From positions 16,527 through 80,526 of the forward strand of contig DASSGV010000009.1 of assembly GCA_035693225.1 (NCBI GenBank): a stretch of DNA of 64,000 bases, given 5' to 3'. Position 1 is the first letter of the stretch, and each line of letters starts with the position of its first letter. The stretch comes from Gemmatimonadales bacterium (lineage in GTDB: Bacteria > Gemmatimonadota > Gemmatimonadetes > Gemmatimonadales > GWC2-71-9). The position numbers were made by a program, and so were the translations under genes. Under the pieces are notes generated by a model that was not told the origin of the DNA, made no database searches, and saw nothing but the letters and a program-made list of their open reading frames with translations. Shown here piece by piece: positions 3,257 to 31,635 of the stretch.

Positions 3257-3280
3257 TATCACCCGATCCCCTGGGATTTT

Positions 3281-4175: not shown

Positions 4176-4183
4176 CCGCTCCC

Positions 4184-5621: not shown

Positions 5622-5703
5622 CTCCCGCGCGCGCCGGCCGATCCAGCACCACTCCGGGCGTCCCCTGCGGCGCCGGCGAACCCCACGGTCGGGAGGAGGG
5701 CCA

Positions 5704-6066: not shown

Positions 6067-6069
6067 TCC

Positions 6070-7965
6070 ATGGACGCGTCGAAGTACACCGCCCTCTTTC
6101 TCGCCGAGAGCCGCGAGCACCTCAGCAGCTGCAACCAGTTGCTCCTCGAGTGGGAGCGCGATCCATCCGTCACCGGCGCCGTGGCGGGGCTCTTCCGGTC
6201 GGTCCATACCCTCAAGGGGATGGCGGCCACGATGGGGTTCGTCCGCCTGGCGGACCTGGCGCACCGGGCCGAAGACCTGCTCGATTCGATCCGCGCCGGA
6301 CGGCTGCAGGCCGATGGCGAGCTGATCGACCTGCTCTTCCGCACCGTCGACGGGCTGGAGAGCGGACTCGAGCCGGCGGCGGCGGGCCGGGATGGCCAGC
6401 TCGACTTCAACGAGTTGACCTCGGCGCTCGATGCGGCCGCGGGGGCCCCGGTGCCGGCGCCCCGCAAGGGTCGCCCCAAGGCGGAGGAGCGTGAGTCGGT
6501 CCCGGTCCGGTTGTCGGTGGCAGCACCGGTGCCGGGCACCGGTCGGGTGGTGAGGGTCAAGGTCGCTTCGGGTTCCGCGATGCCGGGTGTGCGGGCGATG
6601 CTGGCGCTCAAGCGGGCCGAGGCCCTCGGTTCCGTCGGCGGGGTGCAGCCGCCGGCCCAGCAGTTCGAGGGAGAGGCGTTCACCGGGGAGTTCAGCTTCC
6701 GGCTCGATGCGCCGTCGACCGACGCGGAGATCGAGGCCGCCCTGCGGGCCGCCGGAGAGATCGCCTCGGTCGAGATCACCGCAGCGGACGCCGAGGCCGC
6801 GGTCGCGGACCGGGATCAGGGGCGCAATCGTCACATCCGGGTCGATCTCCGCCGGCTCGACGCGCTGATGAACCAAGTGGGCGAGCTCGCCGTGACCCGG
6901 GGGCGGCTCCAGGAGCTGGTGGCGGGGCGCGGGATGCCGGAGGTCGAAGCACTTGCCACGCGGGTCGGGCGCCTGGTGGGCGAGATGCAGACCGAGATCA
7001 TCCAGGCACGGATGACGCCCGTCTGGCAGACCTTCGACCGGTTCCCGCGCGTGGTGCGCGACCTGGCACGGCAACTGGGCAAGCAGGTGCGGTTCGAGGT
7101 CGAGGGCGAGGGGATCGAGCTCGATCGCGCCATCCTCGATGAGATCGGCGATCCGCTCCTCCACCTGATCCGGAACGCCGTCGACCACGGACTGGAATCG
7201 CCGGCGGAGCGCAAGAAGGCCGGCAAGCCGGTCGAGGGACGGGTGACGCTCGCGGCGGCGCAGGCCCGCAACAGCGTCACGATCCGGGTGACCGACGACG
7301 GCCACGGGATCGACCGCGAGAAGCTGCTGGCCAAGGCCAGGCAGGAGGGGATCATCGATGCGTCGGTGGATCGGCTCACCGACGAGCAGATGCTCAAGGT
7401 GGTGGCGCGGGCCGGGTTCAGCACCGCGGCGGAGATCACCGACGTGTCGGGGCGGGGCGTCGGGATCGACGTGGTGGTGTCGCGGGTGCGGCAGCTGGGC
7501 GGCGTGGTGGAGGTCCAGTCGACGCTGGGGCAGGGGACGAGCTTCACCCTGCGGCTGCCGATGACGCTGGCGGTGGTGCGGGTGCTGCTGGCGCGGGTGG
7601 GGTCGGAGCGGTACGCGCTCCCGCTCACCCACGTGGCGGAGACGGTGGAGGTCACCGCGCAATCGCTGGCGGCGTCGCAGACGAAGGACGCGCTCATCCT
7701 CCGCGACCGCGTGGTCCCGATCCGCGACCTGCGGGAGCTCCTGTCGGTGGGCGGGGCCGCGCCGGCGCCCCCGCGGCGCCCGGGGATCGTGCTCGAGATC
7801 GGTGAGCGGCGCACCGCGGTGCTGGTCGATGCGCTGGTGGGACAGCAGGAGATCGTGGTCGAAACGTTCGAGGCGCCGCGGGGGACGCTCCCCGTCTTCA
7901 GCGGTGCCGCGATTCTCGGAGACGGTGCGCCGGCATTGATCCTTGATGCCGCCACGCTGGTGTGA
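6070..7965 (+). CDS. cheA: Chemotaxis histidine kinase CheA
   Basis: 631 aa. Hpt His in FRSVHTLKGMAATMGF. N-box HLIRNAVDHGLE. G1 DDGHGID. G2 SGRGVGIDVV. C-terminal CheW-like P5 domain. No receiver domain. Confidence 0.95.
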   Translation: MDASKYTALFLAESREHLSSCNQLLLEWERDPSVTGAVAGLFRSVHTLKGMAATMGFVRLADLAHRAEDLLDSIRAGRLQADGELIDLLFRTVDGLESGLEPAAAGRDGQLDFNELTSALDAAAGAPVPAPRKGRPKAEERESVPVRLSVAAPVPGTGRVVRVKVASGSAMPGVRAMLALKRAEALGSVGGVQPPAQQFEGEAFTGEFSFRLDAPSTDAEIEAALRAAGEIASVEITAADAEAAVADRDQGRNRHIRVDLRRLDALMNQVGELAVTRGRLQELVAGRGMPEVEALATRVGRLVGEMQTEIIQARMTPVWQTFDRFPRVVRDLARQLGKQVRFEVEGEGIELDRAILDEIGDPLLHLIRNAVDHGLESPAERKKAGKPVEGRVTLAAAQARNSVTIRVTDDGHGIDREKLLAKARQEGIIDASVDRLTDEQMLKVVARAGFSTAAEITDVSGRGVGIDVVVSRVRQLGGVVEVQSTLGQGTSFTLRLPMTLAVVRVLLARVGSERYALPLTHVAETVEVTAQSLAASQTKDALILRDRVVPIRDLRELLSVGGAAPAPPRRPGIVLEIGERRTAVLVDALVGQQEIVVETFEAPRGTLPVFSGAAILGDGAPALILDAATLV

Positions 7966-7973
7966 GGAGACCC

Positions 7974-8594
7974 ATGGACGACGTCCGCGACCTGCAGGCC
8001 CTGCAACTCGACGCGCTCCGCGAAGTGGCCAACATCGGCGCGGGCCACGCCGCCACGGCGCTGGGCCAGATGACCAACAGTCGCATCATGATCAGCGTGC
8101 CGCGGGTCACGGTGCTCCGCCTGGAGGAGGTCGCCGACCTCCTCGGTGCCGCCGACGAGCCCATCGCCGCGGTGATGATGCACATGCTGGGCGACCTGAC
8201 CGGCCGGACGCTGGTCATCTTCCCGGTGCCGTCCGCCAGGACGGTCTGCGATATCCTGCTCCGCCGGGCCCCCGGCACCACGACGGAGTTCGGCGAGATG
8301 GAGCAGTCCGGCATCAAGGAGGCCGGGAACATCCTGTCGAGCGCCTACATGACGGCGCTGAGCGATTTCATGGGGATGATGCTGTTGCCGTCGGTGCCGA
8401 GCCTGGTGATCGACCTCGCCGGCGCGGTGCTCACGACCGCGTACCTCAACTTCGGGCACGATCGCGACTACGTCTTCTGCGTGGAGACGGAATTCAAGTT
8501 CCTGGATTCGCCGATCCAGATCAAGGGACACTTCCTCCTGCTCCCTGACCTGGCCTCGCTGCGGGCCATCTTCGACGCCATCCGCCTGACGTGA
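7974..8594 (+). CDS. cheC: CheC/CheX/FliY-family CheY-P phosphatase
   Basis: Two copies of the D/S-x3-E-x2-N active-site motif (DALREVAN and SGIKEAGN). ATG 7974 is preferred because GAGGAG lies 5 nt upstream. An alternative GTG at 7962 would overlap the cheA stop. Confidence 0.85.
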   Translation: MDDVRDLQALQLDALREVANIGAGHAATALGQMTNSRIMISVPRVTVLRLEEVADLLGAADEPIAAVMMHMLGDLTGRTLVIFPVPSARTVCDILLRRAPGTTTEFGEMEQSGIKEAGNILSSAYMTALSDFMGMMLLPSVPSLVIDLAGAVLTTAYLNFGHDRDYVFCVETEFKFLDSPIQIKGHFLLLPDLASLRAIFDAIRLT

Positions 8595-8601
8595 GCGCGC
8601 C

Positions 8602-11310
8602 ATGACCGGACCGGCTCCGTCGGAACGTGACCTGGCGGTCCTCCGCTCGTTCGCGCGCCGGATCGATCCGTCGGACGCCGGGGCCCACAACAACCTCGGC
8701 GTTTTGTATTACCAGAAGGGCCTGGTGCCGGAGGCCATCGCCGCCTTCGAGCGCTCCCTGGCGCTCGATCCGAAGATGGGCGTGGCCCAGGCCAACCTGG
8801 CCATCGCCTACCAGAACACCGGCTACTACGATCGCCGCGTCGCCGAACTCCGCGAACAACTCCGTCGCCAGCCCGATGACCGCGCGCCCCGCTGGGAACT
8901 GGGGCGGATCTTCGCCGCACTCGGCCAGCACGCCGAAGCGATCGAGGAGTTCGAAGCACTGCTCGCGAGCGCGCCCAAGGACGTGCCGGCGCTCATCCAG
9001 CTCGGCCAGGCGGAGAAGGCGCGCGGCGGGATGGACGCGGCGGCCGAGTGGTTCCGTCGCGCCGCCGAGCTCGATCCGGAGAGCTCCGTGGCCCTCTTCT
9101 ACTTTGGCGAGGCGCTGTATAATCGCGGGCTCAACGAACCCGCCCTCACCGCCCTGACGAAGGCGGTGGCGCTCAATCCCGACAACGCCGACGCCCACTA
9201 CCTGCTCGCCTTCGTGCACGGCGACATGGGCCAGCACGAGGCCGCCCGCGCCTCTACCAAGCGGGCCATCGCGCTCAATCCGACCCTCGGGCGGGCCCAG
9301 GCCAACCTCTCCCTCGAAGAGCGGAAGGCGCAGGCCAGGCGCCGGCGCAACACGCTGGAGGCGCTCCGTCCGGCGGTGACCGAAGGCGGGGTGCTGGCCC
9401 ACTTCAACCTGGGCCTCGCCTTCCGCCAGAAGGGCTACTACGTCGAGGCGCTCCGGGAGTACCGGATGGCGCTGGAGCACGGCGAGGACCGCCGCCTGGT
9501 GCTGCAGGCGATGGCCGAGGTCCACCTCATCCGTCGTGACCTCCCCGCCGCGCTGGAGCTCTACGACCAGCTGGTGCAGGACTTCGCGGACTCTCCCAAG
9601 CTCTGGAACGAACGCGGTGTCTGCCTCCTGCAGGCCGGGCGCGGCGACGACGCGGCGGCCTGCTTTGCCCGCGCCACCGCGATCGATGCGCGGTATGCGC
9701 TGGCCTGGAACAACCTCGGCGTCCTCCGCAGCCAGCAGGCGGACGTCGAAGCGGCCCAGGAATCCTTTCATCAGGCGCTCCGGGCCGTTCCCGGCCTCGC
9801 GGCGGCCCGGCTCAACCTGGCGCTCCTGCTCTTCCAGCTGCGCCGATTCCAGCTGGCGCTCGAGGCATACCGCCAGGTGCTGGCCGACCATCCCCAGAAC
9901 GCCGTGGCATGGAACGGGGTGGGGCTGGTGCTGGTGGAGCTCAAGCGCTACGCCGACGGACGCAACGCGTTCGCGCGCGCCGTCGAGTCGGACGAGACGC
10001 TGGCGGCGGCGCATTACAACCTGAGCTTCACCCTGAGCCATCTCGGCGACTTCGACGGCGCCCTCCGGGAAACGAAGCGCGCGCTCGAACTCGAGCCGTA
10101 CTATGTGCCCCAGAAGTTCTCCCTCACGATCGACCTGCAGTACGAGGACCCCACCATCTCCATCGCGCCGGAGATCTCCGCCGATGTGACCACCGAAGGG
10201 GTGGGTGAGGAGTTCAACTTCGACCAGCGACTGCTCGATCAGCTCTTCACCGAGCTGGAGCCGACCGCACCGCGACCCACCGCGTCGGTCGCGACCGCAC
10301 CGAGCGCCCCTGCGGGAGACGACCCGTTCACCCTCGTGCGCGACTACCTCTCCAAGGGCCTCCTGGACCGGGCCGCGGCGGAGATCGATCGCGCCATCAC
10401 CCGCGGCGCCGACCGCGGCCGGGCGACCACACTCCTGGGCGAGGTCTTCAGTCGCCGCGGCCTCCACGGCGAGGCCCTGGAGCGCTTCCGGGAGGCGCGC
10501 GAGTTCTCTCCTGAGGAACCCGGCGCCCGCCTGGGGGAGGTCCGCGCCCTCCTGGCGATGGATCGCGGTGCCGAGGCGGTGGGCCTGGCGGAAGCGCTCG
10601 TCGTCGCGCGTCCCCACGACGTGGACGTGCTCGTGGTCGGTGCGCGCGCGCGCGCGGCGGCGGGGAACGCGGTCGGTGCGCTCGAGTACGTGCGCGCCGC
10701 GCAGGCGCGCACGCCGGGCCGACCCGAACTGCACCAGCTGCAGGCGGAGGTGGCCACCCAGCTCGGCGATCTCACCGCCGCGGCACAGGCCTACCGCTCG
10801 GCGCTCGAGCTCGATGGATCGCTGGCCCAGGTCTGGTACGGGCTGGGACGGGTGGAGTCCCGGCTGGGCGATCACCGCCAGGCACGCGCCGCCTACGAGC
10901 GCGCCCTCGACCTCCTGCCCACGTTCGTGGAGGCCACGCTCGCCCTCGCCGACCTGGTCCGGCGGGTGGAATCGCCGGCGGCCGCGGTCGATCTCCTCAT
11001 CCCGGTGCTCGAGGCCGATCCGTACGAGCTCGACGCGCTGGCGCTGCTGGGGCGCGCGCTCATCGAGGACGACCGCGCCGACCGGGGCAGCGAGGCCTTC
11101 ATCCGGCTGCTCAAGTTCGCGCCGGACGATGCCGAGGCGCACTACCACCTCGGGCAGGCGCTGGCGCAGCTGCGGCGCTATCCGGAGGCGGTGCAGTGCT
11201 GGGAACGGGTGATGCAGCTGCAGCCGGCGGGTGAGTTGGCCCAGCAGGCGCGTCGCAACGCCCGCTCGGCGCGCGACCTGCAGCACATCTTTGCCCAACG
11301 GAAGGGCTGA
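8602..11310 (+). CDS. Large TPR-repeat protein (902 aa)
   Basis: Repeated 34-aa TPR consensus throughout (e.g. AHNNLGVLYYQKGLVPEAIAAFERSLALDP, AWNNLGVLRSQQADVEAAQESFHQALRAVP). No TM segment, no MCP signalling hairpin. Confidence 0.85.
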   Translation: MTGPAPSERDLAVLRSFARRIDPSDAGAHNNLGVLYYQKGLVPEAIAAFERSLALDPKMGVAQANLAIAYQNTGYYDRRVAELREQLRRQPDDRAPRWELGRIFAALGQHAEAIEEFEALLASAPKDVPALIQLGQAEKARGGMDAAAEWFRRAAELDPESSVALFYFGEALYNRGLNEPALTALTKAVALNPDNADAHYLLAFVHGDMGQHEAARASTKRAIALNPTLGRAQANLSLEERKAQARRRRNTLEALRPAVTEGGVLAHFNLGLAFRQKGYYVEALREYRMALEHGEDRRLVLQAMAEVHLIRRDLPAALELYDQLVQDFADSPKLWNERGVCLLQAGRGDDAAACFARATAIDARYALAWNNLGVLRSQQADVEAAQESFHQALRAVPGLAAARLNLALLLFQLRRFQLALEAYRQVLADHPQNAVAWNGVGLVLVELKRYADGRNAFARAVESDETLAAAHYNLSFTLSHLGDFDGALRETKRALELEPYYVPQKFSLTIDLQYEDPTISIAPEISADVTTEGVGEEFNFDQRLLDQLFTELEPTAPRPTASVATAPSAPAGDDPFTLVRDYLSKGLLDRAAAEIDRAITRGADRGRATTLLGEVFSRRGLHGEALERFREAREFSPEEPGARLGEVRALLAMDRGAEAVGLAEALVVARPHDVDVLVVGARARAAAGNAVGALEYVRAAQARTPGRPELHQLQAEVATQLGDLTAAAQAYRSALELDGSLAQVWYGLGRVESRLGDHRQARAAYERALDLLPTFVEATLALADLVRRVESPAAAVDLLIPVLEADPYELDALALLGRALIEDDRADRGSEAFIRLLKFAPDDAEAHYHLGQALAQLRRYPEAVQCWERVMQLQPAGELAQQARRNARSARDLQHIFAQRKG

Positions 11311-11313
11311 GCG

Positions 11314-12462
11314 ATGGCCATCGAGGGACCGCTCAAGGAGCTCGGGATCCACGATGTCTTCCAGCTGCTCGACCTCAGCCGGAAGACCGGCGTGCTGCGC
11401 GTGTCATCGGAACTGCGCCAGAACGCGGGCACCGTGGTCTTTGCCCAGGGCGCGGTGACGTCGGCGGAGATCCGGTCCAATCCGCACCCGCTCGGGTCGG
11501 TGCTCCTCGCCGCCGGGAAGATCACCCAGGAGGACCTCACCCGCGCCCGCGACATGCAGAAGGCCGGTGATCCCCGCCGCCTGGGCGAGGTGCTGGTCGA
11601 GATCGGCGCGGTCAGCCGGCGGGAACTGGCCCGGCAGGTCCGGGCCCAGGTCGAGGAAGTGGTCTTCGAGCTGATGAGCTGGTCCGAGGGCTACTTCTCG
11701 TTCGAGGAAGGGGTCGCGGCGGGGGTCGCGGAGGCCGATGTCCGGATCACCACCGAAGCGCTGATGATGGAGGGTGCGCGCCGGATCGACGAGTGGTCGC
11801 AGATCCAGCAGCGGATCCCCCATCTGGGGATCGTACCGCGGCTGGCGCCGGGGACCGGTGCCGAGGCCGGGACGATCGACCTGCTGCCGGAGGAGTGGGA
11901 GGTGCTGACCGCGATGGACGGAGAACGGGATGTCCGTTCGGTGGCGGAGGCGCTGGGTCGCTCTGAATTCGACGTGGCGAAGACCCTCTTCGGCCTGGCG
12001 AGCGCCGGGGTGATCATCCTGGACGCGCCGGCCACGGTGTCCGGTGCGGCGCCGAGCCGGGAGCTGGCCATCCTCATTGCCCGGACCGAGGATCGCCTCG
12101 CCAGCAACGATGCGCCGGCGGCACTCCTGGCTGCACAGGAGGTGGTGGCCTCCCATCCGCACGAGCCGATGGCCCATCTGGTGCTCGGGCGTGGCCTCCT
12201 GGCCGTCGGCCGGACCGCCGATGCCGCCGAATCGTTCCGTCGCACGTTACAATACGATGCCGGCTCGGCGACGGCGTATCGTCTCCTGGGGCTCAGCCTG
12301 CTCGCCAGCGGGCGGTTTTCCGAGGGTGCCGAGCAGCTCGACCGCTGGGCGGCGCTGCCCGACCTGCCGCCGGAGGAGCAGGAAGCGACGGAGCAGGTGG
12401 AACGGGCCCGCCAGGCCGCCCGGTCGCTCGATGACGCACTGCGCGGAAAGGGGAGCTCGTGA
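11314..12462 (+). CDS. PATAN (DUF4388) domain protein with MshEN/T2SSE_N-like helical motifs and C-terminal TPR
   Basis: N-terminus GPLKELGIHDVFQLLDLSRKTGVLRV...VVFAQGAVTSA is the typical DUF4388/PatA-N signature. Two LGxxLLxxGxI...L...Q motifs follow (residues about 59-112). C-terminal TPR-like helices. Confidence 0.75.
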   Translation: MAIEGPLKELGIHDVFQLLDLSRKTGVLRVSSELRQNAGTVVFAQGAVTSAEIRSNPHPLGSVLLAAGKITQEDLTRARDMQKAGDPRRLGEVLVEIGAVSRRELARQVRAQVEEVVFELMSWSEGYFSFEEGVAAGVAEADVRITTEALMMEGARRIDEWSQIQQRIPHLGIVPRLAPGTGAEAGTIDLLPEEWEVLTAMDGERDVRSVAEALGRSEFDVAKTLFGLASAGVIILDAPATVSGAAPSRELAILIARTEDRLASNDAPAALLAAQEVVASHPHEPMAHLVLGRGLLAVGRTADAAESFRRTLQYDAGSATAYRLLGLSLLASGRFSEGAEQLDRWAALPDLPPEEQEATEQVERARQAARSLDDALRGKGSS

Positions 12463-13292
12463 ACGACGACATTCGCGCGCTCACCGCCCAGCTGGCTGCG
12501 GACCCGGCGAGCCTGGTCTTCCTTCCCCTGGGCGAGGCGCTGCGCCGTCGCGGCCAGCACGACGTGGCGCAGAAAGTGGCGCTGGCCGGGTTGGGTCGGT
12601 ATCCGCACCTGCCCGATGCCCACGACCTCTTTGCCCGGATCCTGGTCGATCGGAAGGACTTCGAGCGGGCGTTCGACGAGTGGGACATGACGCTGCGCCT
12701 CGATCCCCAGCACGCCGGGGCGCTCAAGGGTTTGGGTTTCCTCTACTACAAGGCCGGCGATCTGCCGCGCGCCCGGGAGCTGCTGGAAGCGGCGCAGCTC
12801 GAGAGCCCCGACGATCCGAGCGTGGTCGCGGCGTTGGCCCGGGTGCGGGCGGAATCGGGATCGGCGCCCGAGGCCGCGTCCGCCGGAGCGCCACCCCTGG
12901 CGCCCTCCACCGAGGCCGATCCGGTCGCGGCCCCGGCATCGGTTTTTGCGGGACTGGAAGGGGCCGAGAATGGACTGCTGCTGGTGGACACCGCCGGCCT
13001 TCGGCTGGGTGGCGGGCTGCTGGATCCATCGGGCGCCGATGTGGCCGATGTCGTGGCGGCGCACCTGGCGGGCGTGTCCCGCGAGGCGCAGCGGACCGTC
13101 CGGCTCCTGGACCTGGGCACCTGGGAGGCGGTCATCGTCGAGGCGCCGAAGGGCAACGCGGCGGTGGTGCCGGCCAACTCGGAATCGCTGCTGCTCCTGA
13201 TGCGGGACGGGAGCGTGCCGCTGGGCCGGCTCCACGTCCTGGCCGACCGCGCCGCCAAGGCCGCCCGCCAGTGGATGGAAGGGATCGCGTGA
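12459..13292 (+). CDS. TPR + Roadblock/LC7-domain fusion protein
   Basis: 277 aa. N-terminal TPRs (PDAHDLFARILVDRKDFERAFDEWDMTLRLDP, AGALKGLGFLYYKAGDLPRARELL). A low-complexity linker. The C-terminal roughly 100 aa has a Roadblock pattern (GLLLVDTAGLRLGGG...DVVAAHLAGVSREAQRTVRLLDLGTWEAVIVEAPKGNAAVVP...LLLLMRDGSVPLGRL). GTGA overlap at both ends. Confidence 0.7.
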   Translation: MNDDIRALTAQLAADPASLVFLPLGEALRRRGQHDVAQKVALAGLGRYPHLPDAHDLFARILVDRKDFERAFDEWDMTLRLDPQHAGALKGLGFLYYKAGDLPRARELLEAAQLESPDDPSVVAALARVRAESGSAPEAASAGAPPLAPSTEADPVAAPASVFAGLEGAENGLLLVDTAGLRLGGGLLDPSGADVADVVAAHLAGVSREAQRTVRLLDLGTWEAVIVEAPKGNAAVVPANSESLLLLMRDGSVPLGRLHVLADRAAKAARQWMEGIA

Positions 13293-13636
13293 CCGCCTGG
13301 ACCGATGCGCTCGAACTCATCACCCGGGTCTCCGGGATCCGGGGCGCGATGGTCGTCTCCGCGATCGACGGGATGGTCGTGGCCGAGTCGCTGATGGACG
13401 AGCTCAAGGGGAGTGCCGTGGCCGCGTTGGCCGCGAGCCTGACGGGCAGGATCGGACGGGCGACCGACGGCGCCGGGCGGGGGGCTCCGCGATTCCTCCA
13501 GCTGCAGGCGACCGGGGGCACCCTGCTGGTGGCGCCCCACGGTCCGGACCTGCTGATCGTCGCGGTGGCCGAACGCACGGTCAATGCCGGACTCGCGCGG
13601 CTGGAGATGTTCCGGGCCGCGGAGCTGGTGCGCTGA
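13289..13636 (+). CDS. Roadblock/LC7-domain protein (MglB/MglC-like, 115 aa)
   Basis: GTG 13289 within frame 12044-13636. LELITRVSGIRGAMVVSAIDGMVVAESL...SAVAALAASLTGRI...LQLQATGGTLLVAP...LLIVAVAE is the classic alpha-beta-alpha-beta-beta Roadblock pattern. Confidence 0.75.
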   Translation: MTAWTDALELITRVSGIRGAMVVSAIDGMVVAESLMDELKGSAVAALAASLTGRIGRATDGAGRGAPRFLQLQATGGTLLVAPHGPDLLIVAVAERTVNAGLARLEMFRAAELVR

Positions 13637-14097
13637 TGCGCGCCGTCGAACCGTGGGTGGAGGGGCCGGTGGCGGCATTCCTCGCCGAGTCGGAGGCGCG
13701 GCTGGTGCTGCTGATGACCTCCTCCGGCCAGGTCGTGGCCCAGCACGGATTTGCCCGGGCGGTGGACGTGATGGGGGCCGCCGCGCTCGGCGCCGCGATC
13801 GTCGCCTCCACCGGGGAGATCGCCCGTACGCTCCAGTGGACCCCCTTCGGCGTGATGGTCCACCAGGGACCGGCACAATCACACTTCCTGGCCGCTTTCG
13901 AGACGCCGCGCGGCCGGTGGATCGCGCTGGTGGTGTTCGGGGGCGATACGTCGCTCGGCATCGTGCAGCTGTTCTTCGAACAATTGGTCAAGGATCTCGC
14001 CGCCGCGGTGCCCGCGGCCCCGCCGGCGCAGCCCGTGCTGGCGGAGAACTTCGAAAGCGAGCTCAATTCGAGCTTGCGATCGCTCTTCGGACGCTGA
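13636..14097 (+). CDS. mglB: MglB-type Roadblock/LC7 GTPase-activating protein
   Basis: 153 aa, immediately upstream of mglA as in Myxococcus mglBA. By eye it aligns block by block with M. xanthus MglB: [16 protein letters not shown] ~ VVFLVDKNGQLISSAG, and [26 protein letters not shown] ~ VLVVIFDNRTSLGLVRLRIKKASDEL. It has an acidic/amphipathic C-terminal tail. Confidence 0.8.
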
Positions 14098-14101: not shown

Positions 14102-14704
14102 ATGTCCCTCGTCAACTTCACGACCCGCGAGATCACCTGCAAGATCGTCTACTATGGCCCCGGACGATCGGGCAAGACGACGAACCTGCACTATATATAC
14201 GGTCGGGTGCCGGACACCCGGCGGGGGAAGATGGTCTCCCTCGCCACCCAGACGGACCGTACCCTGTTCTTCGACTTCCTCCCGCTGGAGCTGGGGCAGA
14301 TCTCCGGCTTCACGACGCGGTTCCAGCTCTACACCGTCCCGGGGCAGGTGTACTACAACGCGACCCGCAAGCTGGTGCTCCAGGGCGCCGACGGCGTGGT
14401 CTTCGTCGGCGACAGCCAGGGACGCCGTCTCGAGGACAACATCGAGAGCCTCCAGAACCTGCAGACGAACCTGCTGGAGCAGGGGATCGACGTGCGCCAG
14501 TTCCCCACGGTGTTCCAGTACAACAAGCAGGATCTTCCTCCGGAGCTCATTCTGAGCGCCGCCGAGCTGGATGACGCCCTCAATTTCCGTGGCGCGAAGA
14601 GCTTCCCGGCCGACGCGGTCCACGGCAGCGGCGTCTTCGAGACGCTCAAGGGCATCTCCGAGCTCGTCCTCAAGCGCCTGGCGCAGAATTCCCCCGTGGG
14701 ATGA
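14102..14704 (+). CDS. mglA: MglA-family Ras-like small GTPase
   Basis: 200 aa. Near-collinear with M. xanthus MglA from memory: [21 protein letters not shown] (P-loop), [12 protein letters not shown] (Arg-finger-equivalent region), [10 protein letters not shown] (catalytic Gln), QYNKQDLP (NKxD). Confidence 0.93.
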
Positions 14705-16674
14705 CCGACCAGCTCAACCCGCGGTTCCGCCTGGACAGCTACGTCGTCGGTGCGGCCAATCGGCTGGCCGTGACGGCGGCGCGCGCGGTGGCCGAGTCGC
14801 CGGCGACGGCCTACAACCCGCTCTTCATCTATGCCGGTCCCGGCCTCGGCAAGACCCACCTCCTGATGGCGATCGGCCACCAGGCCCGGACCATCGACCC
14901 GCAGCTCTCGGTCGAGTATGTGACCCTCGATGACTTCGTGGAGGCGTACAACGCCGCCATCGCGGCGGGCCAGGGTGATGCCTACCGGAAGCGCTACGCC
15001 GAGACGGGCGCCCTGCTGATCGACGACGTGCAGTTCCTGACCCACCGGCGCGAGGTGCAGGCGGAGCTCCTTCGGCTGGTCAACACGATGACGGCGGCGG
15101 GCCGTCAGATCGTGATGACGAGCGACCGCCCGCCGGCCGAGATCGAGGCGCTGGACGAGCGGCTGATCCAGCGCTTTGCCGGCGGGCTCGTCATCGACAT
15201 CGGCGCCCCCGATTTCGAGACCCGTGTCGCGATCCTCCGCCGGCAGTGTGACGACCGGGGTGTGGCGTTCGCTCCCGGCGTCATCGAGGTCGTGGCGGAG
15301 ATGGGGGCGGGGAACGTCCGGGAGCTGATCGGCGGGCTCAACCGCCTGGTCGCGGTCCAGTCGGTCAGCGATCGTCCGATCGACGCCGAGCGGGCGCGCG
15401 ACGCCCTCGGTGGCGGGCCCCGGTCGACGGCACCGACGGGGGCCGGGTCGGTCCCGGGGAATGACGCCGCACCCCCGGCACCGCTGGAGACGGCGGAGTT
15501 CGACGCCTTCCTGAGCGAAGTGACGGTGACGCTGTCGCAGCAGGTCGAGGCGTGGCGCGCGCGCGTGGGCGAGGCGATCCTGCGCTGGGAAGGGGAGGGA
15601 TATCGCACCGCGCGACTCACCGAACTCCTCGACCAGGAGGCGCCTCCCGATCCGGAGGCGACGCTCAAGAGTTTCGTCGCCGACGTCGAGCGGTTGCGGC
15701 GGTTGGAACGGGAGGCCGCCGAGCTGGATCCCGAGCTCGCCGGGGTCGCGGCGTTCCGCGATCCCGACGGGTTGGTGGCCGCCGAATCGCTCCTGGCCCG
15801 GGCCCGCTCCGGCGCCACGCCGCCGCCGGGACCTTCACCGTTGTGGCGGCTGGAGGAGTTCGCCGAAGGACCCTCCAACCAGGTCGCGGTGCGCGCCGCG
15901 GGGACGATCATCCACGAACCCGCGGTCAAGTACAATCCGCTCGTGATCGTCGCCGGCAGCGGGCTCGGCAAGACCCACCTGCTCCACGCCATCGGCAACC
16001 AGCTCGCCGCCGCACCGGAGTCCGTGGTGGCGTGCCTGGGTGCCCAGGACTTCACCGAGAACCTCATCGAGGCCATCGACCGTGATCGGGTGGCGCTCTG
16101 GCGGGCGCGGTATCGCCGGGTCACCGCGTTCCTGCTCGACGACGTGCAGCTCCTGGCCGGGCGCGACCGGAGCCAGGAGGAGCTCTTCTGGCTCTTCAAC
16201 CAGCTGGCGGAGCAGGGGCGCCAGATGGTCTTCTCGAGTGCGGTGGCGCCGCGCGACCTGGTGGGCATCGAGCCGCGGCTGGTGAGCCGGTTGGAGGGTG
16301 GCCTGGTGGTGACGCTCGAGCCTCCCGGGCGCGACCTCCGGCTGATGGTCGCCCGCCGTGAATTGGTCGAGCGGACCGGTGCGGCGGACGATGAGCTGGC
16401 GCAGTATCTCGCGGCGCGGCCGGCGGATTCGCCCCGGGCGGTCCTGGGCCTGGTGCAGCGCGTGCTGCAGGCGGCGGAGGCCCAGCAGCTCCCGCCGAGC
16501 GCGGGGCTGGCGCGCGAGCTGCTCGAAGGGGCCACCGAGCGCCCGGCGCGCAAGAGCGGCGGCCGGCGCTCCAGCGGGATCGTGGTCTCGGCCAGCGGCG
16601 GCGTGAAGAGCGTCGAGAAGATGGTCTGGGCGTGGCCCGACACCGCCGACCGCCTGATCGAGGATCTCCGCTGA
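14701..16674 (+). CDS. Protein with two tandem DnaA/Hda-type AAA+ modules and no DnaA domain IV
   Basis: 657 aa. Module 1: Walker A GPGLGKTH (14836-14856), Walker B LLIDDVQ, sensor [10 protein letters not shown], box [29 protein letters not shown], sensor [14 protein letters not shown]. Module 2: GSGLGKTH (15955-15975), [44 protein letters not shown]. The roughly 150-aa linker is helical/low-complexity. No C-terminal HTH DnaA-box-binding domain is recognisable. ATGA overlap with the mglA stop. Confidence 0.85.
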
Positions 16675-18299
16675 TGGCGATCAAGGGATCCCTGAAGGAG
16701 GCGAGCCTTCCCGACGTGCTGCAGCTCCTTTCCCTGGGGCGCAAGAGCGGCTGCCTGGCGGTCGCGGACCGCCAGAACTTCGGGTACATCTACTTCGACG
16801 AGGGACGGATCTGTTTCGCGTCGATCGTCAACCGTCGCGACCGGCTCGGCGACCTCCTGGTCAAGAACGGGCGGATCTCCCAGTCGCAGCTGCAGCAGGC
16901 CGTGGATCTCCAGGAGGAGCTCCGCGACCAGAAGCTCGGCGAGATCCTCGTCAACAGCGGCGCCATCAAGCGGATCGACCTGGAGGAGTACATCCGGCTC
17001 CAGATCGAGGAGGCGGTGTACTTCCTGTTCACCTGGGCCTCGGGGACCTTCAACTTCGAGGCGGGGGTCCGCCCCGACCGCCAGGACTTCCTCGTCAACA
17101 TCAATCCCGAGTCGCTCTTGCTCGAAGGGGCGCGCCGGGTGGACGAGTGGAGCCTGATCGAGAAGAAGATCCCGTCGTTCGACCTCATCTTTTCGCTCGA
17201 CCAGAAGCACCTGGAGGGCTCCCAGGTCAGCCTCTCGCCGGAGCAGGAGCGGTTGCTCCCGCTCCTCGACGGCCGCCACGACATCCACCAGCTCGTGGAG
17301 GACAGCGGCCTGGTGGAGTTCGAGGTCGGCAAGGCGCTCTACGGGTTCATCACCGCCGGGTTCGCCCATCGGGTGGGGAGTTCGACCGGGGCCGCGGAGC
17401 CCAGTGTCAGCGCCGCGCGGGTGGACGAACATCGCAACCTCGGCATCGCCTTCTACAAGACCGGGATGCTCGATGAGGCGCTGCGGGAGTTCCGCCGGGT
17501 GGCCGACCTCCGCCCCTCGGAGGCCAGCGCGCCCTTCTACGTCGGGCTGATCGCGCTCAAGCAGGCCAAGTGGTCCGAGGCCGTCGAATCGCTCCGCCTG
17601 GCGCTGGATCGGGGCGGGCCGCGGTCGGCGGCGCTCTACAACCTCGCCTTCGGCCTGGAGCGGATGGGCAAGCTGGACGACGCCGAGGCGACCTACGGCG
17701 AGGCGGTGACCCGGGCGCGCGACGACGCGCGGATCATGACCGGCTGGGCGATCGCGGCGCTCAAGCGGGGCGACGCCTCCGTCGCGTCGGGGCGGCTGCA
17801 GCGCGCCCGGGAATTGTGGGGCGCGAAAGCACCGCCGGCGATCTGGTACTGGGCCACGGCGCTTGCCCATGCGGTCGAATCCGACCTGGAACAGGCGATC
17901 CTGGTGGCCCAGGAGGGTGTGACGGCCTTTCCCACGCACGCGGTGCTCAAGAACAACCTGGCGGTGCTCCTGGAGCTGACCGGCGATGTCGCCGGCGCGG
18001 AGGCGGCCGTCCGCGAGGGGTTGAGCGAGGATCCCTCGGTGCCGCAGTTGTCGAAGAACCTGGGCGACCTGCTCTATCGGGCCGGCAAGTACGACGAGGC
18101 GGACGAGGCGTACCAGCGCGCGGCCAAGCTCGCCCCCGACCTCGGCGACGACCTCTACTTCAAGCTCGGGAACATCGCGTTCCGCCAGCGCGACACCGAT
18201 CGCGCGCGCGCCCAGTGGCAGCGGACCGTCGAGCTCAATCCCGATCACCAGCTGGCGCGGAGCAACCTGGAGTCGATGTCCTCCGAGGCCGCGGGATGA
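16674..18299 (+). CDS. PATAN (DUF4388) domain protein with MshEN/T2SSE_N-like motifs and C-terminal TPR (paralog of 11314-12462)
   Basis: ATG 16674 within frame 16632-18299. GSLKEASLPDVLQLLSLGRKSGCLAV...IYFDEGRICFA. RLGDLLVKNGRISQSQLQQAVDLQ + KLGEILVNSGAIKRIDLEEYIRLQ. The blocks WASGTFNFEAG and LLLEGARRVDEWSLIEKKIP mirror WSEGYFSFEEG and LMMEGARRIDEWSQIQQRIP in the paralog. At least 5 C-terminal TPRs. Confidence 0.78.
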   Translation: MAIKGSLKEASLPDVLQLLSLGRKSGCLAVADRQNFGYIYFDEGRICFASIVNRRDRLGDLLVKNGRISQSQLQQAVDLQEELRDQKLGEILVNSGAIKRIDLEEYIRLQIEEAVYFLFTWASGTFNFEAGVRPDRQDFLVNINPESLLLEGARRVDEWSLIEKKIPSFDLIFSLDQKHLEGSQVSLSPEQERLLPLLDGRHDIHQLVEDSGLVEFEVGKALYGFITAGFAHRVGSSTGAAEPSVSAARVDEHRNLGIAFYKTGMLDEALREFRRVADLRPSEASAPFYVGLIALKQAKWSEAVESLRLALDRGGPRSAALYNLAFGLERMGKLDDAEATYGEAVTRARDDARIMTGWAIAALKRGDASVASGRLQRARELWGAKAPPAIWYWATALAHAVESDLEQAILVAQEGVTAFPTHAVLKNNLAVLLELTGDVAGAEAAVREGLSEDPSVPQLSKNLGDLLYRAGKYDEADEAYQRAAKLAPDLGDDLYFKLGNIAFRQRDTDRARAQWQRTVELNPDHQLARSNLESMSSEAAG

Positions 18300-19120
18300 T
18301 CGAGGCCGGTGACGTCGACGGCTTCGCCGCGCTCACGCGGACGATCTCGACGACCGCCGGGCTCGCGCTCGAGGGGTACAAGGACAAGTGCCTCCGGCGC
18401 CGGATCGCGGTGCGGATGCGGGCGCGCGGCGTCCACACCTTTGCGGACTACGAGCGCCTGCTCGGTCAGGATCCCGGTGAGTACGAGAAGCTCACCGACG
18501 CGCTCACGATCAACGTCACCCGATTCTATCGGAACGCCGACACCTGGGGCCGCCTGACGCGTGACCTCCTGCCCGAGCTCTGGGCCGCCCGTCAGGGTGC
18601 GGTGCGGGTCTGGAGCGCGGGATGCTCGTCGGGAGAGGAGCCCTATACGATCGCGATGCTCCTGGCCGCGGAGGCGGAGCGGAGCGCCCGGCGGTCGTGG
18701 CTGGAGCGCGGCAGCATCGTGGCGACCGACATCGACAAGGTGTGCCTGGAGCGCGCCCGTGCCGCGCGGTACCCGGAGGCGGCCTTCTCGGAGACGCCTC
18801 CGGCGCTGACCGCCCGGTACACCGTCCCGGTGCCGTCCGGGCGGGAGATCGTCCCTGAGCTCCGCGCGCTGGTCGACTGCCGTCGGGCCGACCTGTTCCT
18901 CGACCCCGTACCGGGGCCGTCCTTCGACCTCATCACCTGTCGCAACGTGATCATCTATTTCGATCGTGGCAGTCAGGAGCAGCTCTTTTCCCGGTTCGCG
19001 GACGCGCTGGTGCCCGGGGGCCTCCTGGTGCTGGGCAAGGTGGAGACCCTCTTCGGGCCGGTGCGGGAGCGGCTCGAGCTCATCGACGTGCGCGAGCGGA
19101 TCTTCCGGAGGCCGGCGTGA
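18296..19120 (+). CDS. cheR: CheR chemoreceptor glutamate O-methyltransferase
   Basis: ATG 18296 within frame 17570-19120. N-terminal helical CheR domain (LRRRIAVRMRARGVHTFADY), TRFYRN, SAM-binding VWSAGCSSGEEPYTIAM, CRNVIIYFD. Confidence 0.9.
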   Translation: MIEAGDVDGFAALTRTISTTAGLALEGYKDKCLRRRIAVRMRARGVHTFADYERLLGQDPGEYEKLTDALTINVTRFYRNADTWGRLTRDLLPELWAARQGAVRVWSAGCSSGEEPYTIAMLLAAEAERSARRSWLERGSIVATDIDKVCLERARAARYPEAAFSETPPALTARYTVPVPSGREIVPELRALVDCRRADLFLDPVPGPSFDLITCRNVIIYFDRGSQEQLFSRFADALVPGGLLVLGKVETLFGPVRERLELIDVRERIFRRPA

Positions 19121-19611
19121 CCGGCCCTGACGCCGTCATCGTCAAGGTGGCTGAGCTCCGCGCCGGTGGGGCCGGCGCCGAACTCGTCACCCTCGGCCTG
19201 GGAAGTTGCGTCGCGATCATCCTCCACGATGCCGAGGCGCAGGTGGGCGGGATGGCGCACGTGATGCTCCCGTCGAAGTCCCTCTCGCATCGCGGTGCGG
19301 CGCAGGCGGCCAAGTTCCCCGAGACCGCGGTGCCGGCGCTGATCGAAGCGATGGCGGCGCTCGGCGCCCAACCCCGGCGGATGTCGGCGCGCCTGGTCGG
19401 AGGCGCCAGCATGTTCGCCGCGTTGACGCCCATGGGCGCGGTCCAGATGGGGGAGCGCAACGTGGTGGCCAGCCGCCAGGCGCTCGCGCTGGCGGGGATC
19501 CCGGTCGTGGGCGAGGCCACCGGTGGGACGGCGGGGCGGTCGGTGCGTCTCTTGGTGGCCGATGGGTCGGTCTCGATCCGGACGCTGGCCGATGGCATCC
19601 GCAAGCTCTGA
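19117..19611 (+). CDS. cheD: CheD chemoreceptor glutamine deamidase
   Basis: 164 aa. [14 protein letters not shown]...GGMAHVMLP (catalytic Cys/His context), [19 protein letters not shown] overlap with cheR. Confidence 0.88.
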
Positions 19612-20674
19612 CCTGCCGTCGGTCCTGGTGGTCGACGACAGTGCCCTGTTCCGTCGGGTGCTGACCGAGATCATCGACGCGACCGGCGAGTTCCGGGTGG
19701 CGGCCACCGCGCGCGACGGCCTGGACGCGCTGCGGAAGCTGCACAAGTACGTGCCGGACATCGTCACGATGGACCTGGAGATGCCCGAACTCGACGGGCT
19801 GGGCACCATCGGCTACATCATGTCCGAGTCGCCCCGGCCGATCGTCGTGGTGAGCGCGTACGCCGGAGCGGGGACCGCCGGCGCCATCCGCGCGCTCGAG
19901 CTCGGCGCCGTGGAGCTGGTGCCGAAGGAACTCGATCCGTCCACCGAGTCGATCCGACGGCTCGCCCCCAGGATCCTCGCGGCGCTTCGGGCGGCGCGGG
20001 CCGCGGACATCCATCGGGTGAGCCCGCTCGCGCGCCCCCCGCGGCCGGAGCCGCCCCGGTCGGCCGACGTCTTTGCCTTGCCGGGCCGGGCCCGCTGGTG
20101 CGTCGCGATCGCCGCATCGACCGGCGGGCCCCGGGCGTTGGCCGAGGTGGTCCCGGCGCTCAAGCCGGGGCAGGGGGCCGCGGCCCTCATCGTCCAGCAC
20201 ATGCCGCCAAAGTTCACGCGCTCCCTGGCGGAGCGGCTGGCCACCCAGAGCCGCATGACCGTGGTCGAGGCGGAGGATCAGGCGCCGGTGCTGGCCGATA
20301 CCGCGTACATCGCCCCGGGCGATTATCATATGCGGGTGACCGCCGGCGAGAACGGGATCCGGATCGTGCTGGGCCAGGACGCGGCACAGCACGGGGTCCG
20401 CCCCGCCGCCGATCCCCTGTTCGAGTCGGTGGCCCAGGTCTTCGGACGCCGCAGCGTGGGCGTGGTGCTCACCGGCCTCGGTCGCGATGGCGCCGCGGGG
20501 CTCAAGCAGATCCACGATGCCGGCGGGGTCGGCGTGGCACAGGATCGGGAGAGCGCCACGATCTATGGAATGCCCAAGGCCGCCTTCGAGTCGGGTGGGG
20601 CCGACGCCGTGCTCCCGCTGGACCGGATCGCCGGGCGCATCGGCGAGGAGCTCGAACGGATGAAGCGCGGATGA
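19592..20674 (+). CDS. cheB: CheB protein-glutamate methylesterase (REC + CheB_methylest)
   Basis: ATG 19592 ([22 protein letters not shown]...). REC Asp in [13 protein letters not shown]. Esterase motifs [36 protein letters not shown]. Overlaps cheD by 20 nt. Confidence 0.92.
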
Positions 20675-21117
20675 CCGCCACGGCGGTGCGCTACCTCGAG
20701 CTGACCGCCGGAGGCCGCCGCTACGGATTGCCGGTCTCCCAGGTGGTCGAAGTGGGCGAACCGGGCCCGGTGCTCGCGGCACCGACCCAGGCGCCGTCCC
20801 TCCGCGGCGTAAGCGAGGCGCGGGGCAGGCTCGTCCCGGTGCTGCACCTGGCCGCTTTCCTGGCCGGTGCGCCGTGCCCCTCCGAGCGGGGGACCGCCTT
20901 GGTGCTGGTTCGTTCCGGCGACGGCGCCGGAGACGGCCTGGTGGCGCTGGAAGTGGATGACGTCTTTGCGGTGGTGCGCGGGCCGGTGCTGCCGGCCGCC
21001 GAGCTGCCCTCGCTGCCCTGGGCCACCGGCCTGGCGCAGCGGGACGATGGGACCCTCCCGATCCTTGACCTCAGCACGCTTGCGGATCGACTCCGCGGCC
21101 TCGGAGTTCCGGCATGA
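20671..21117 (+). CDS. cheW: CheW-like coupling protein (CheW-2, divergent)
   Basis: ATG 20671 within frame 20098-21117. [21 protein letters not shown]...[17 protein letters not shown]...[14 protein letters not shown] fits the CheW-domain pattern. ATGA overlap with cheB. Confidence 0.75.
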
Positions 21118-21581
21118 CGACGACCGGCGATGAGATCCAGATCGTGACCTTCCGCGTCGGGACGCAGGAATTCGGCCTGAACGTGTTCCAGGTCGAGCGC
21201 ATCCTGCGCTACGAAGCGCCCTCCGCACTGCCGAAGGCGCCCGATTTCCTCGAGGGCGTGGTGCAGTTCGACGGCAGCGTCGTTCCCGTCGTCGACCTGC
21301 GCAAGCGGCTCACCCTTCCGGCGGAGCGGCAGGAGGACACCCGGCTGATGGTGCTGGATGTCGACGGCCAGCGGGTCGGGATCATCGTCGATCAGGTGCT
21401 CGACGTGCTGCGGGTGGACGGTGGTGCGGTCACGGCCCCGCCCCCGATCGTGCGCGGGCTCGCGGCCGAGTACATCAGCGGGCTCCTGGCGCAGGGTCCG
21501 CGCACCGTCGTCATCCTGAATGCCGGGCGCCTGTTGACATCCAAGGAACGGCTGGCACTCGCCAAGGTCGGCGCCGCCTGA
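21114..21581 (+). CDS. cheW: CheW coupling protein (CheW-3)
   Basis: 155 aa. IVTFRVGTQEFGLNVFQVERILRY...FLEGVVQFDGSVVPVVDLRKRL...VGIIVDQVLDVLRV. Confidence 0.88.
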   Translation: MTTTGDEIQIVTFRVGTQEFGLNVFQVERILRYEAPSALPKAPDFLEGVVQFDGSVVPVVDLRKRLTLPAERQEDTRLMVLDVDGQRVGIIVDQVLDVLRVDGGAVTAPPPIVRGLAAEYISGLLAQGPRTVVILNAGRLLTSKERLALAKVGAA

Positions 21582-31629: not shown

Positions 31630-31635
31630 GGGACG

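Follow-up and report, generated by a model that had tools for sequence, protein, structure and literature searches.

To our knowledge, domain III of DnaA is found almost exclusively in proteins that initiate or control replication, namely DnaA and Hda and, more distantly, DnaC/IstB. Hda consists of a single module of ~230-250 amino acids (aa), carries an N-terminal beta-clamp-binding motif and acts at the replisome. Chains with two AAA+ modules are familiar from ClpB, p97 and NSF, which belong to the classic clade, have pore loops and form stacked hexameric rings. DnaA domain III itself self-assembles head-to-tail in an ATP-dependent manner via its arginine finger (PMC5742627). Here we describe dDnaA (double DnaA-like ATPase), a 657-aa protein with two domain III-like modules that is encoded in a 64-kb stretch of Gemmatimonadales DNA (contig DASSGV010000009.1, positions 16,527 to 80,526; hereafter the window), within an operon of chemosensory (che), MglA/MglB, PATAN and TPR genes.

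The genes surrounding dDnaA resemble other described systems. Proteins of the Roadblock/MglB type are regulators of NTPases, and PATAN proteins have a part in motility and polarity signalling (PMC4316618, PMC9090330). As with the MglA-MglB pair and the Frz system of Myxococcus xanthus (PMC4316618, PMC3441718), a GTPase and its GTPase-activating protein are combined here with a che system and with TPR and PATAN proteins; unlike at our locus, no AAA+ ATPase belongs to the Myxococcus module, and partners of the RomR/RomX type were not seen in the window cluster. The MshE/PilB-type ATPases (PMC5013675) provide a second parallel, since there too an NTPase is accompanied by an element of the MshEN type, which at our locus resides in the translationally coupled PATAN-TPR neighbour. 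The dDnaA fold is however that of an initiator-clade AAA+ protein and not of T2SSE/PilB, and binding of cyclic di-GMP (c-di-GMP) by the PATAN proteins is predicted from a motif model only. A full-text literature search that combined DnaA with MglA, PATAN, DUF4388, MshEN, chemosensory or Gemmatimonas returned no description of such a protein, in agreement with an earlier note on this DNA, whose author knew of no family like it. The paper on MshEN (PMC5013675) mentions neither DnaA nor PATAN, and databases name dDnaA only generically, or wrongly as DnaA. The protein can be described as a known fold in a new architecture, in a new context and probably in a new role, in that an ATPase of the replication type has in all likelihood been put to use in signalling.

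Architecture and fold of dDnaA

The gene and the segments of its product are as follows. The predicted local distance difference test score is abbreviated pLDDT.

14701..16674, + strand: dDnaA gene, 657 aa; based on the open reading frame (ORF), its translation, two Bac_DnaA (PF00308) stretches and >190 full-length homologues
14701..15414, + strand: module 1 (aa 1-238), DnaA domain III-like AAA+; based on the match to PDB sequences, Foldseek and the residue census
15415..15489, + strand: variable spacer (aa 239-263), predicted disordered (pLDDT <50), with length and sequence varying between homologues
15490..15816, + strand: family-specific helical insert domain (aa ~264-372), with confident helices in both models
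15826..16536, + strand: module 2 (aa ~376-612), divergent DnaA domain III-like AAA+; based on the second PF00308 stretch and the census
16537..16671, + strand: C-terminal tail (aa 613-657), disordered, with pLDDT <50 for aa 613-647 and a short helix at 648-656

Since more than 190 full-length homologues exist at 30-92% identity, the ORF can be taken as a real gene, far beyond chance. In Pfam, Bac_DnaA (PF00308) matched the product at E 3.1e-95 in two stretches, while neither DnaA_N (PF11638) nor Bac_DnaA_C (PF08299) matched at E <= 0.01. This is the outcome that the earlier note had expected from hmmscan, and the motif strings which it quoted from the two modules are all present in the translation. 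Its statement that domain I is absent also held, in that the chain starts directly at domain III with the sequence LNPRFRLD. With respect to domain IV, a profile-profile comparison (hhalign) of the region between the modules gave a probability of 0.13%, and the chain after module 2 is predicted by AlphaFold2 to be disordered up to the short terminal helix. Because Pfam, hhalign and the structure model were all negative, a cryptic domain IV, for which we looked specifically, is absent, as the note had proposed. The junction sequences further agree with the tight coupling that it described: the dDnaA ATG overlaps the mglA stop codon (gggATGAcc at 14701), and the dDnaA stop codon overlaps the ATG of the following PATAN-TPR gene (cgcTGATGgcg at 16672-16676).

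A search of PDB sequences aligned aa 3-236 of dDnaA with domain III of Bacillus subtilis DnaA at E 7.6e-57, while module 2 gave weak matches, to Hda-like chains only. An AlphaFold2 model built from 48 family sequences reached a pLDDT of 85.7 and was superposed by Foldseek on B. subtilis DnaA domain III (8bv3) with a TM-score of 0.95, a root-mean-square deviation (rmsd) of 1.6 Å and 44% identity. The two modules are 36% identical to one another, which is no closer than either is to canonical DnaA (36-44% identity between module 1 and true DnaA domain III, 30-37% between module 2 and canonical DnaA). The label 'tandem-duplicated', used in the earlier note, is therefore appropriate for the architecture of dDnaA, but its sequence does not point to a recent duplication.

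The presence of two AAA+ modules per polypeptide, with functional asymmetry between them, is shared with the type II tandem ATPases ClpB, p97/Cdc48 and NSF. In contrast to these proteins, dDnaA belongs to the initiator clade, and Foldseek comparisons with them gave TM-scores of 0.23-0.29 at an rmsd of 22-29 Å; moreover, the dDnaA modules are parted by a helical domain of ~110 aa plus the disordered spacer. A function as an anti-phage defence ATPase was considered and rejected, as PADLOC gave only a 28.7-bit partial AAA+ match to mad8 and no qualifying stretch. The window has a G+C content of ~70% and long ORFs on both strands. In DNA of 70% G+C, an antisense ORF of 1047 aa such as that at 15105-18248 on the - strand, which runs across the dDnaA and PATAN genes, is expected, and we do not regard it as a gene.

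Nucleotide-site residues, insert and tail

To describe the two nucleotide sites we used a residue census of 195 aligned family members with 30-92% identity to the window protein. Residue roles follow a review of DnaA (PMC5742627) and were mapped by ungapped alignment with B. subtilis DnaA and by motif spacing. In module 1 this identifies Walker A K51, Walker B D108/D109, sensor-1 D142, box VII R154, arginine finger R158 and sensor-2 R207. The corresponding residues of module 2 are Walker A K424, Walker B D480/D481, R526, arginine finger R530 and sensor-2 R579, while the sensor-1 position is occupied by Ala514. The census gave the following counts.

Walker A Lys: K51 in 195/195 (module 1); K424 in 191/195 (module 2)
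Walker B Asp: D108 in 194/195 (module 1); D480 in 191/195 (module 2)
Arginine finger: R158 in 169/195 (module 1); R530 in 184/195 (module 2)
Sensor-2 Arg: R207 in 189/195 (module 1); R579 in 185/195 (module 2)
Sensor-1 Asp: D142 in 160/195 (module 1); mostly Ala or Ser (module 2), with SSA in the window protein against TSD in DnaA
H motif, single-stranded DNA (ssDNA) contact: His in 140/195 (module 1); Ile in 149/195 (module 2)
B motif, ssDNA contact: Glu in 158/195 (module 1); Arg in 164/195 (module 2)
AID-1: not Arg, Ala commonest at 70/195 (module 1); Arg in 173/195 (module 2)

Because the P-loop, Walker B, arginine-finger and sensor-2 residues of both modules are conserved in about 85-100% of these members, both sites are under purifying selection. 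The claim of the earlier note that the ATP motifs are intact in both modules stands for Walker A, Walker B, the box VII Arg and sensor II, but not for sensor I of module 2, where Ala replaces Asp. Individual losses occur in divergent members: Walker A of module 2 is missing from P0190 and P0194 (P numbers denote homologues), its arginine finger from P0150, P0158 and P0182, and the module 1 finger from some.

At the ssDNA-contact positions (V211 and R245 of Escherichia coli DnaA), module 1 has His or Asn together with Glu, and module 2 has Ile together with Arg. A sample of canonical DnaA proteins (n=12) had Ile or Val at the H-motif position in 12/12, Arg at AID-1 in 12/12 and Arg at the B motif in 7/12. 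Module 2 also keeps a basic residue equivalent to K243, and AID-2 is kept in both modules, as a Leu in module 1. As judged from the alignment, the modules are thus asymmetric in a complementary way, module 1 having the sensor-1 Asp without the ssDNA and AID-1 residues and module 2 showing the reverse.

The family-specific segments are no less constrained. In the insert, each of the residues E266, F267, F270, W285, W296, G300, L306, D354 and P355 is kept in >=187/195 members. A model of the insert alone reached a pLDDT of 89.9, and Foldseek found no fold match for it in the PDB (best E 4.5). The tail contains the peptide E639-K640-x-V-W643-x-W645-P646...D650-R651-L-x-E654 (nucleotides ~16609-16671), which is found even in the most divergent members and in which E639 and K640 are each conserved in 189/195, W645 in 191/195 and P646 in 187/195. 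By these counts, conservation in the insert and tail equals that of the catalytic residues.

Taken with the architecture, these residues separate dDnaA from the described replication proteins. Both modules resemble DnaA domain III in matching PF00308 and in having Walker A/B, box VII, the arginine finger and sensor 2. The protein differs from DnaA by its two modules per chain, by the absence of domains I, II and IV, by the lack of H/B ssDNA motifs and AID-1 in module 1 and of the sensor-1 Asp in module 2, by its helical insert and W-x-W-P tail, and by a gene position in a signalling operon without oriC context. With Hda/HdaA it shares a domain III-only composition without DNA-binding domain and a retained arginine finger; unlike Hda, it has 657 aa, two modules and a different gene context. 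It scored 164.8 against the Hda model TIGR03420, below the cutoff of 194.8, and 36-61 against the HdaA models, for which the cutoffs are 297-300. A beta-clamp-binding motif of the QL[SP]LPL type was not found at the dDnaA N-terminus, where L5, N6 and P7 are conserved but Q4 is not. By these sequence criteria, dDnaA is neither DnaA nor Hda.

Within the 64-kb window we found no second DnaA homologue and no match to the DnaA box TTATCCACA within one mismatch, and no dnaN lies near dDnaA. A canonical Gemmatimonadota dnaA was not found among the homologue candidates either, and three of these were rejected in that capacity. P0245, which lies on a 1602-bp contig of the European Nucleotide Archive and shares 59% identity with module 1, looks like an assembly chimera in which an unrelated DnaA_N-bearing DnaA is joined, at the Walker A region, to family-like module-1 sequence; its N-terminus resembles alphaproteobacterial DnaA. 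P0184 is a mis-started fragment of the dDnaA family, and P0216 is deltaproteobacterial.

The gene cluster and its conservation

Members of the dDnaA family are ~640-730 aa long. A word-indexed search yielded >120 full-length relatives of 640-680 aa with 60-92% identity, of which the named ones belong to Gemmatimonadales or Gemmatimonadota and are called 'DnaA/Hda family protein'; IMG calls many members 'chromosomal replication initiator protein DnaA'. An exhaustive search of 50%-identity representatives added dozens of full-length single-stretch matches, down to ~33% identity. Two linker-specific peptide patterns, designed from a second linker alignment (A5) after a first one (A4) had proved too diverse, detected 241 relatives in species-representative genomes. 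The best 80 of these 241 loci, all from Gemmatimonadota metagenome-assembled genomes (MAGs), were compared with the window proteins by tblastn, and the counts below refer to testable loci only.

The gene context of dDnaA is strongly conserved. An MglA gene ends at the dDnaA start in 75/78 loci, the three exceptions being contig edges or frameshifts, and a PATAN-TPR gene starts at the dDnaA stop in 71/71, which speaks against the random, non-conserved context that the earlier note had named as a refutation. The MglB-like gene was present in 76/76 loci, CheA in 54/55 and CheB in 56/59. The window is collinear with the loci of relatives at ~61% identity. In the window itself, the order is ileS, rluD, cheW, cheY, cheA, cheC, TPR (902 aa), PATAN-TPR (382 aa), TPR-Roadblock, Roadblock, MglB-like, MglA and dDnaA, followed by PATAN-TPR (541 aa), cheR, cheD, cheB, cheW, cheW, TPR, Peptidase_MA_2-like, a small ORF, TPR-like, rsmH and the dcw cluster. 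On the basis of this conserved order, dDnaA is a fixed part of what is by gene content a motility/polarity-type signalling cluster across the phylum Gemmatimonadota. The features next to dDnaA are listed below, where L numbers denote loci of relatives.

4791..8594, + strand: upstream che genes (Pfam CheW, Response_reg, Hpt/P2/H-kinase_dim/HATPase_c/CheW, CheC), namely cheW ending at 5621 with its real start near 5190, cheY 5704-6066, cheA 6070-7965 and cheC 7962-8594
8602..11310, + strand: large TPR protein, 902 aa, many TPR families; same position in L002, L003, L084, L086 and L087
11314..12462, + strand: PATAN-TPR protein, 382 aa, with MshE-type c-di-GMP motif (PF14332 E 1.8e-31; NF053729 39.3 bits, cutoff 38)
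12459..13292, + strand: TPR-Roadblock protein, 277 aa (TPR families and PF03259)
13289..13636, + strand: second Roadblock/LC7 protein, ~115 aa (PF03259), start inferred from homologues; L002, L003, L086 and L087 each have a called gene of 115-118 aa here
13636..14097, + strand: MglB-like Roadblock protein, 153 aa (E ~8e-8 to M. xanthus MglB)
14102..14704, + strand: mglA, 200 aa (E 1.4e-72 to M. xanthus MglA)
16674..18299, + strand: PATAN-TPR protein, 541 aa, with MshE-type c-di-GMP motif (PF14332 E 3.6e-36; NF053729 46.6 bits, cutoff 38); it starts at ATG 16674 and not at GTG 16632 of the mechanical ORF
18296..21581, + strand: downstream che genes (Pfam CheR, CheD, CheB_methylest with Response_reg, CheW), with approximate starts, namely cheR ~18296-19120, cheD 19117-19611, cheB ~19600-20674, cheW ~20690-21117 and cheW 21114-21581; same order in L002 and L003
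21595..25475, + strand: module tail (Pfam), namely TPR 21595-22467, Peptidase_MA_2-like within ORF 22320-23351 and TPR-like 23706-25475; same order in L002, L003, L086, L087 and L089

The window MglA is, by its match to the M. xanthus protein, genuine. Because the MshE-related motif (NCBIfam NF053729) is found inside the PATAN domain of both PATAN-TPR proteins, these are predicted c-di-GMP receptors; the PATAN-TPR protein of L093 (12180-13802) scored 51.3 bits with the same model. The mgl/PATAN/TPR/dDnaA block sits between cheC and cheR, and no gene for a methyl-accepting chemotaxis protein was present among the che-operon genes examined (window 4791-8594 and 18296-21581). The Peptidase_MA_2-like protein (22320-23351), whose gene is a constant follower of the module, matched the flagellinolysin HExxH model NF033876 weakly, with 33 bits against a cutoff of 205. 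Downstream of the module lie rsmH (25670-26581) and ORFs sized like those of the dcw division/cell-wall cluster (window 25670-40000). In L086 and L087, rsmH is followed by a penicillin-binding protein (ftsI-type) gene, with a Mur ligase gene in addition in L087, and loci of the Gemmatimonadota type have the signalling module wedged between ileS-rluD and rsmH/dcw.

More divergent loci indicate which of these genes are dispensable. In L087 (36% identity; 3024-13563), cheY, cheC, TPR, PATAN, Roadblock, MglB, MglA, dDnaA and PATAN-TPR are kept and cheA, cheW, cheR, cheD and cheB are absent; an orphan pair of CheY and CheC attached to the module was also seen in L035 and L037. L088 and L093 are minimal loci: apart from dDnaA they contain just rluD, a Roadblock gene of the MglB-like kind, PATAN-TPR and Peptidase_MA_2, the last following PATAN-TPR even here. 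The Roadblock gene stands directly upstream of dDnaA in both of these MglA-less loci, and in L088 it overlaps dDnaA by ATGA. Its product is weakly similar to the window MglB-like protein (BLASTP E 0.03-0.14), with a C-terminal FE-x-SL...LF stretch that looks similar by eye. L089 likewise has no MglA upstream of dDnaA. L084, with the order cheW, cheY, cheA, extra P-loop gene, cheW, cheC, TPR, PATAN (248 aa) and dDnaA, contains neither MglA nor MglB. The extra gene of this 'Cloacimonetes-like' variant (4035-4853) encodes a 272-aa P-loop protein (AAA_16, AAA_22, nSTAND-like) and lies between cheA and a cheW of 344 aa. Neither L084 nor L093 retains the link to the dcw cluster. MglA is the common state in Gemmatimonadales and not a universal or defining partner of dDnaA. 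What obligatorily accompanies dDnaA is the PATAN protein and, in Gemmatimonadota-type loci, also the MglB-like Roadblock protein.

The small-GTPase survey of 2014 (PMC4316618) lists for GAU_1409 of Gemmatimonas aurantiaca the neighbourhood 'PATAN>MglA>-PATAN>', and we infer that the unnamed gene (dash) between MglA and PATAN is the dDnaA ATPase. The culturable strain T-27 of this species appears to hold the dDnaA locus around GAU_1409. It has two Group 1 MglA genes, GAU_1115 (MglB>MglA>) and GAU_1409 (PMC4316618, table S2), and the cluster MglA is therefore one of two paralogues there. In the most divergent group (P0161, 29-33% identity) one relative is named 'Candidatus Cloacimonetes bacterium 4572_55' and others are named Gemmatimonadetes. 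Beyond Gemmatimonadota, the apparent spread of DnaA-module proteins of this kind is based on a small number of named MAG proteins, from Candidatus Cloacimonetes 4572_55, Candidatus Fermentibacteria and Candidatus Sumerlaeia. Two loci, L028 and L030, have the same length of 4070 bp and the same match coordinates and identity, one being from a 'Solirubrobacterales' and the other from a Gemmatimonadales MAG; the presence of dDnaA in the 'Solirubrobacterales' bin is probably a binning error.

DnaA modules were also found fused to other domains. The search of representatives yielded P0200, a protein of 1990 aa with MshEN and two Bac_DnaA modules. In the corresponding locus L090 (4309-15923 of JAUXFG010000024.1, GCA_030620115.1), MshEN is encoded by four genes in a row, of which three are fusions with DnaA modules (983, 398 and 1990 aa); they lie between pilD and pilB(MshEN-T2SSE)-pilT-pilC-pilS-pilR. 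The likeness to MshE/PilB-type systems is closer here than at our locus, as MshEN is fused directly to the DnaA modules beside pilB, pilT and pilC. The 398-aa MshEN-DnaA type comprises ~15 clusters, one of which is named Candidatus Fermentibacteria. A further protein, P0227 of Candidatus Sumerlaeia (1354 aa; L091 10001-14065), has TPR repeats over ~900 aa and, after them, one DnaA domain III module, and is encoded outside a che/mgl context, with uvrB, prfB, dnaG and rpoD as neighbours. Per module, the fusion proteins are 38-50% identical to canonical DnaA and 28-34% to the Gemmatimonadota family, and a neighbour-joining tree of the modules, which is crude and has no Hda or DnaC outgroups, agrees. 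Because the fusion modules are nearer to canonical DnaA by both measures, we interpret the fusions as separate, parallel recruitments of one fold to work alongside MshEN, PATAN and TPR partners. A shared clade of the MshEN-DnaA fusions and the dDnaA family was rejected, the ranking of Gemmatimonadota proteins above canonical DnaA being probably an artefact of summing two modules. The proteins of the L090 type look like another class, also undescribed, of DnaA-like proteins outside replication, and the comparison suggests that the DnaA fold was recruited more than once for signalling.

Possible roles of dDnaA

The interpretation that we favour, at about an even chance, is that dDnaA is a non-replicative DnaA-clade AAA+ protein that would serve as an ATP-dependent assembly switch or scaffold in a cytoplasmic signalling module. 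The invariant core of this module consists of the MglB-like Roadblock protein, dDnaA, a PATAN-TPR protein with the MshE-type c-di-GMP motif and the Peptidase_MA_2-like protein. Most Gemmatimonadales have MglA in addition, along with two further Roadblock proteins, another PATAN-TPR protein and large TPR proteins, all inside a che operon. Both dDnaA modules would bind ATP, and their arginine fingers may make DnaA-style head-to-tail contacts, within and/or between chains, so that ATP binding and hydrolysis would toggle dDnaA between an assembled and a disassembled form. Module 1, with its full catalytic set, could be the hydrolysing site, and module 2, without the sensor-1 Asp, a slower, regulatory one. 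TPR domains commonly bind short terminal peptides, and the insert and C-terminal peptide of dDnaA may dock TPR or PATAN partners. Inputs would come from MglA/MglB, from c-di-GMP via PATAN and from phosphorylated CheY, and the output would be control of polarity or motility. Whereas the architecture, the conserved residues, the lack of DNA-binding domains, the synteny and the translational coupling are shown here, the ATP-dependent assembly, the division of labour between the modules, the docking, the inputs and the output are proposed. The earlier note had suggested a switch or scaffold for the MglA module; such a role would fit the conserved ATP-site and finger residues, but MglA cannot be the defining partner in view of the loci without it (L084, L088, L089, L093).

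Several observations weigh against the switch or scaffold interpretation. No pilus, flagellar or gliding structural genes adjoin the module in the window. The predicted TM-score of the structure model is 0.52, which means that the geometry between the modules is not confident. Since MglA is missing in some lineages, the GTPase cannot be the sole input. Module 2 still has the residues for ssDNA contact (Ile in H, Arg in B) as well as AID-1, which would also fit a role related to nucleic acids, and module 1 is so near to DnaA domain III, with box VII and the arginine finger kept, that it could engage DnaA itself.

The last point leads to an Hda-like or anti-DnaA regulator, in which one or both modules would attach head-to-tail to the real DnaA, capping its filaments or using their arginine fingers to stimulate ATP hydrolysis, so that input from chemosensory, GTPase or c-di-GMP signalling would gate replication initiation and the cell cycle. 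The closeness of module 1 to B. subtilis domain III (44% identity, rmsd 1.6 Å) with R154, R158 and the AID-2 Leu retained, the AID-1, AID-2 and arginine finger of module 2, and the position of the cluster immediately upstream of rsmH/dcw in Gemmatimonadota-type loci are all consistent with such a regulator. We nevertheless regard it as unlikely, because the clamp-binding motif is absent with Q4 not conserved, the TIGR03420 score remains below its cutoff, and all conserved neighbours are signalling proteins with nothing replication-related linked to them; the dcw link, moreover, is lost in L084 and L093. Binding of ssDNA or RNA by the H/B residues of module 2, which would tie the module to the nucleoid or to pilus-handled DNA, draws on the conserved Ile, Arg and K243-equivalent basic residue (roles after PMC5742627) and on the related MshEN-DnaA fusions in a type IV pilus cluster. 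It seems distinctly improbable to us: a duplex-DNA-binding domain is absent, no competence or DNA-processing genes lie near dDnaA, and the B-motif Arg is present in only 7/12 even of the canonical DnaA sample. Because the H/B residues of module 1 are replaced by His/Glu, a continuous DnaA-like filament surface for ssDNA is also unlikely.

If dDnaA were a passive scaffold or a pseudo-ATPase, its DnaA folds would be nothing but a platform for TPR, PATAN and Roadblock proteins, and nucleotide turnover would not be needed. The sensor-1 Asp of module 2 is indeed missing in most members, and the module 2 Walker A or an arginine finger is lost in some divergent ones, yet the Walker A Lys and Walker B Asp are present in >=191/195 in both modules, the sensor-2 Arg in >=185/195 and the fingers in 169 and 184/195. 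Such a pattern would not be expected unless nucleotide binding, and probably hydrolysis, mattered, and we consider the passive scaffold highly unlikely. Finally, dDnaA scored 459.7 with the DnaA equivalog model TIGR00362, above the cutoff of 343.9, which together with the IMG names of many members might be read as evidence for a true, if unusual, initiator, while weak IstB_IS21 matches might recall an IstB/DnaC-type loader of a mobile element. Neither is credible to any real degree. The TIGR00362 match consists of two stretches, one per module, and domains I/IV, DnaA boxes within one mismatch in the 64 kb, and a nearby dnaN are all missing, in line with the judgement of the earlier note that a replication initiator is unlikely. 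The loader models were far from satisfied (89.8 against 200 for the IstB model NF038214, 28.2 against 357 for the DnaC model PRK07952), and the gene keeps a stable position between ileS-rluD and dcw in Gemmatimonadota-type loci, where no transposase genes were seen.

In a wider form, the switch or scaffold interpretation would make DnaA-type modules an unrecognised class of signalling ATPases, whose head-to-tail assembly is under c-di-GMP and GTPase/Roadblock control and which in Gemmatimonadota would act as a polar landmark or switch of the chemosensory-MglA system, or as its coupling to the true DnaA and thereby to the start of replication. We put this forward tentatively and think it on balance unlikely.

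The finding bears on annotation, as the TIGR00362 pass and the naming in IMG can cause errors where origins are predicted from dnaA or genes are counted in Gemmatimonadota. For the biology of the phylum, it means that a strongly conserved, phylum-wide paralogue with two replication-type modules is wired into a che-MglA/MglB-PATAN-TPR operon. If the switch or scaffold interpretation holds, dDnaA would bring an ATP-driven part into polarity systems of the MglA type and might provide c-di-GMP with a new output.

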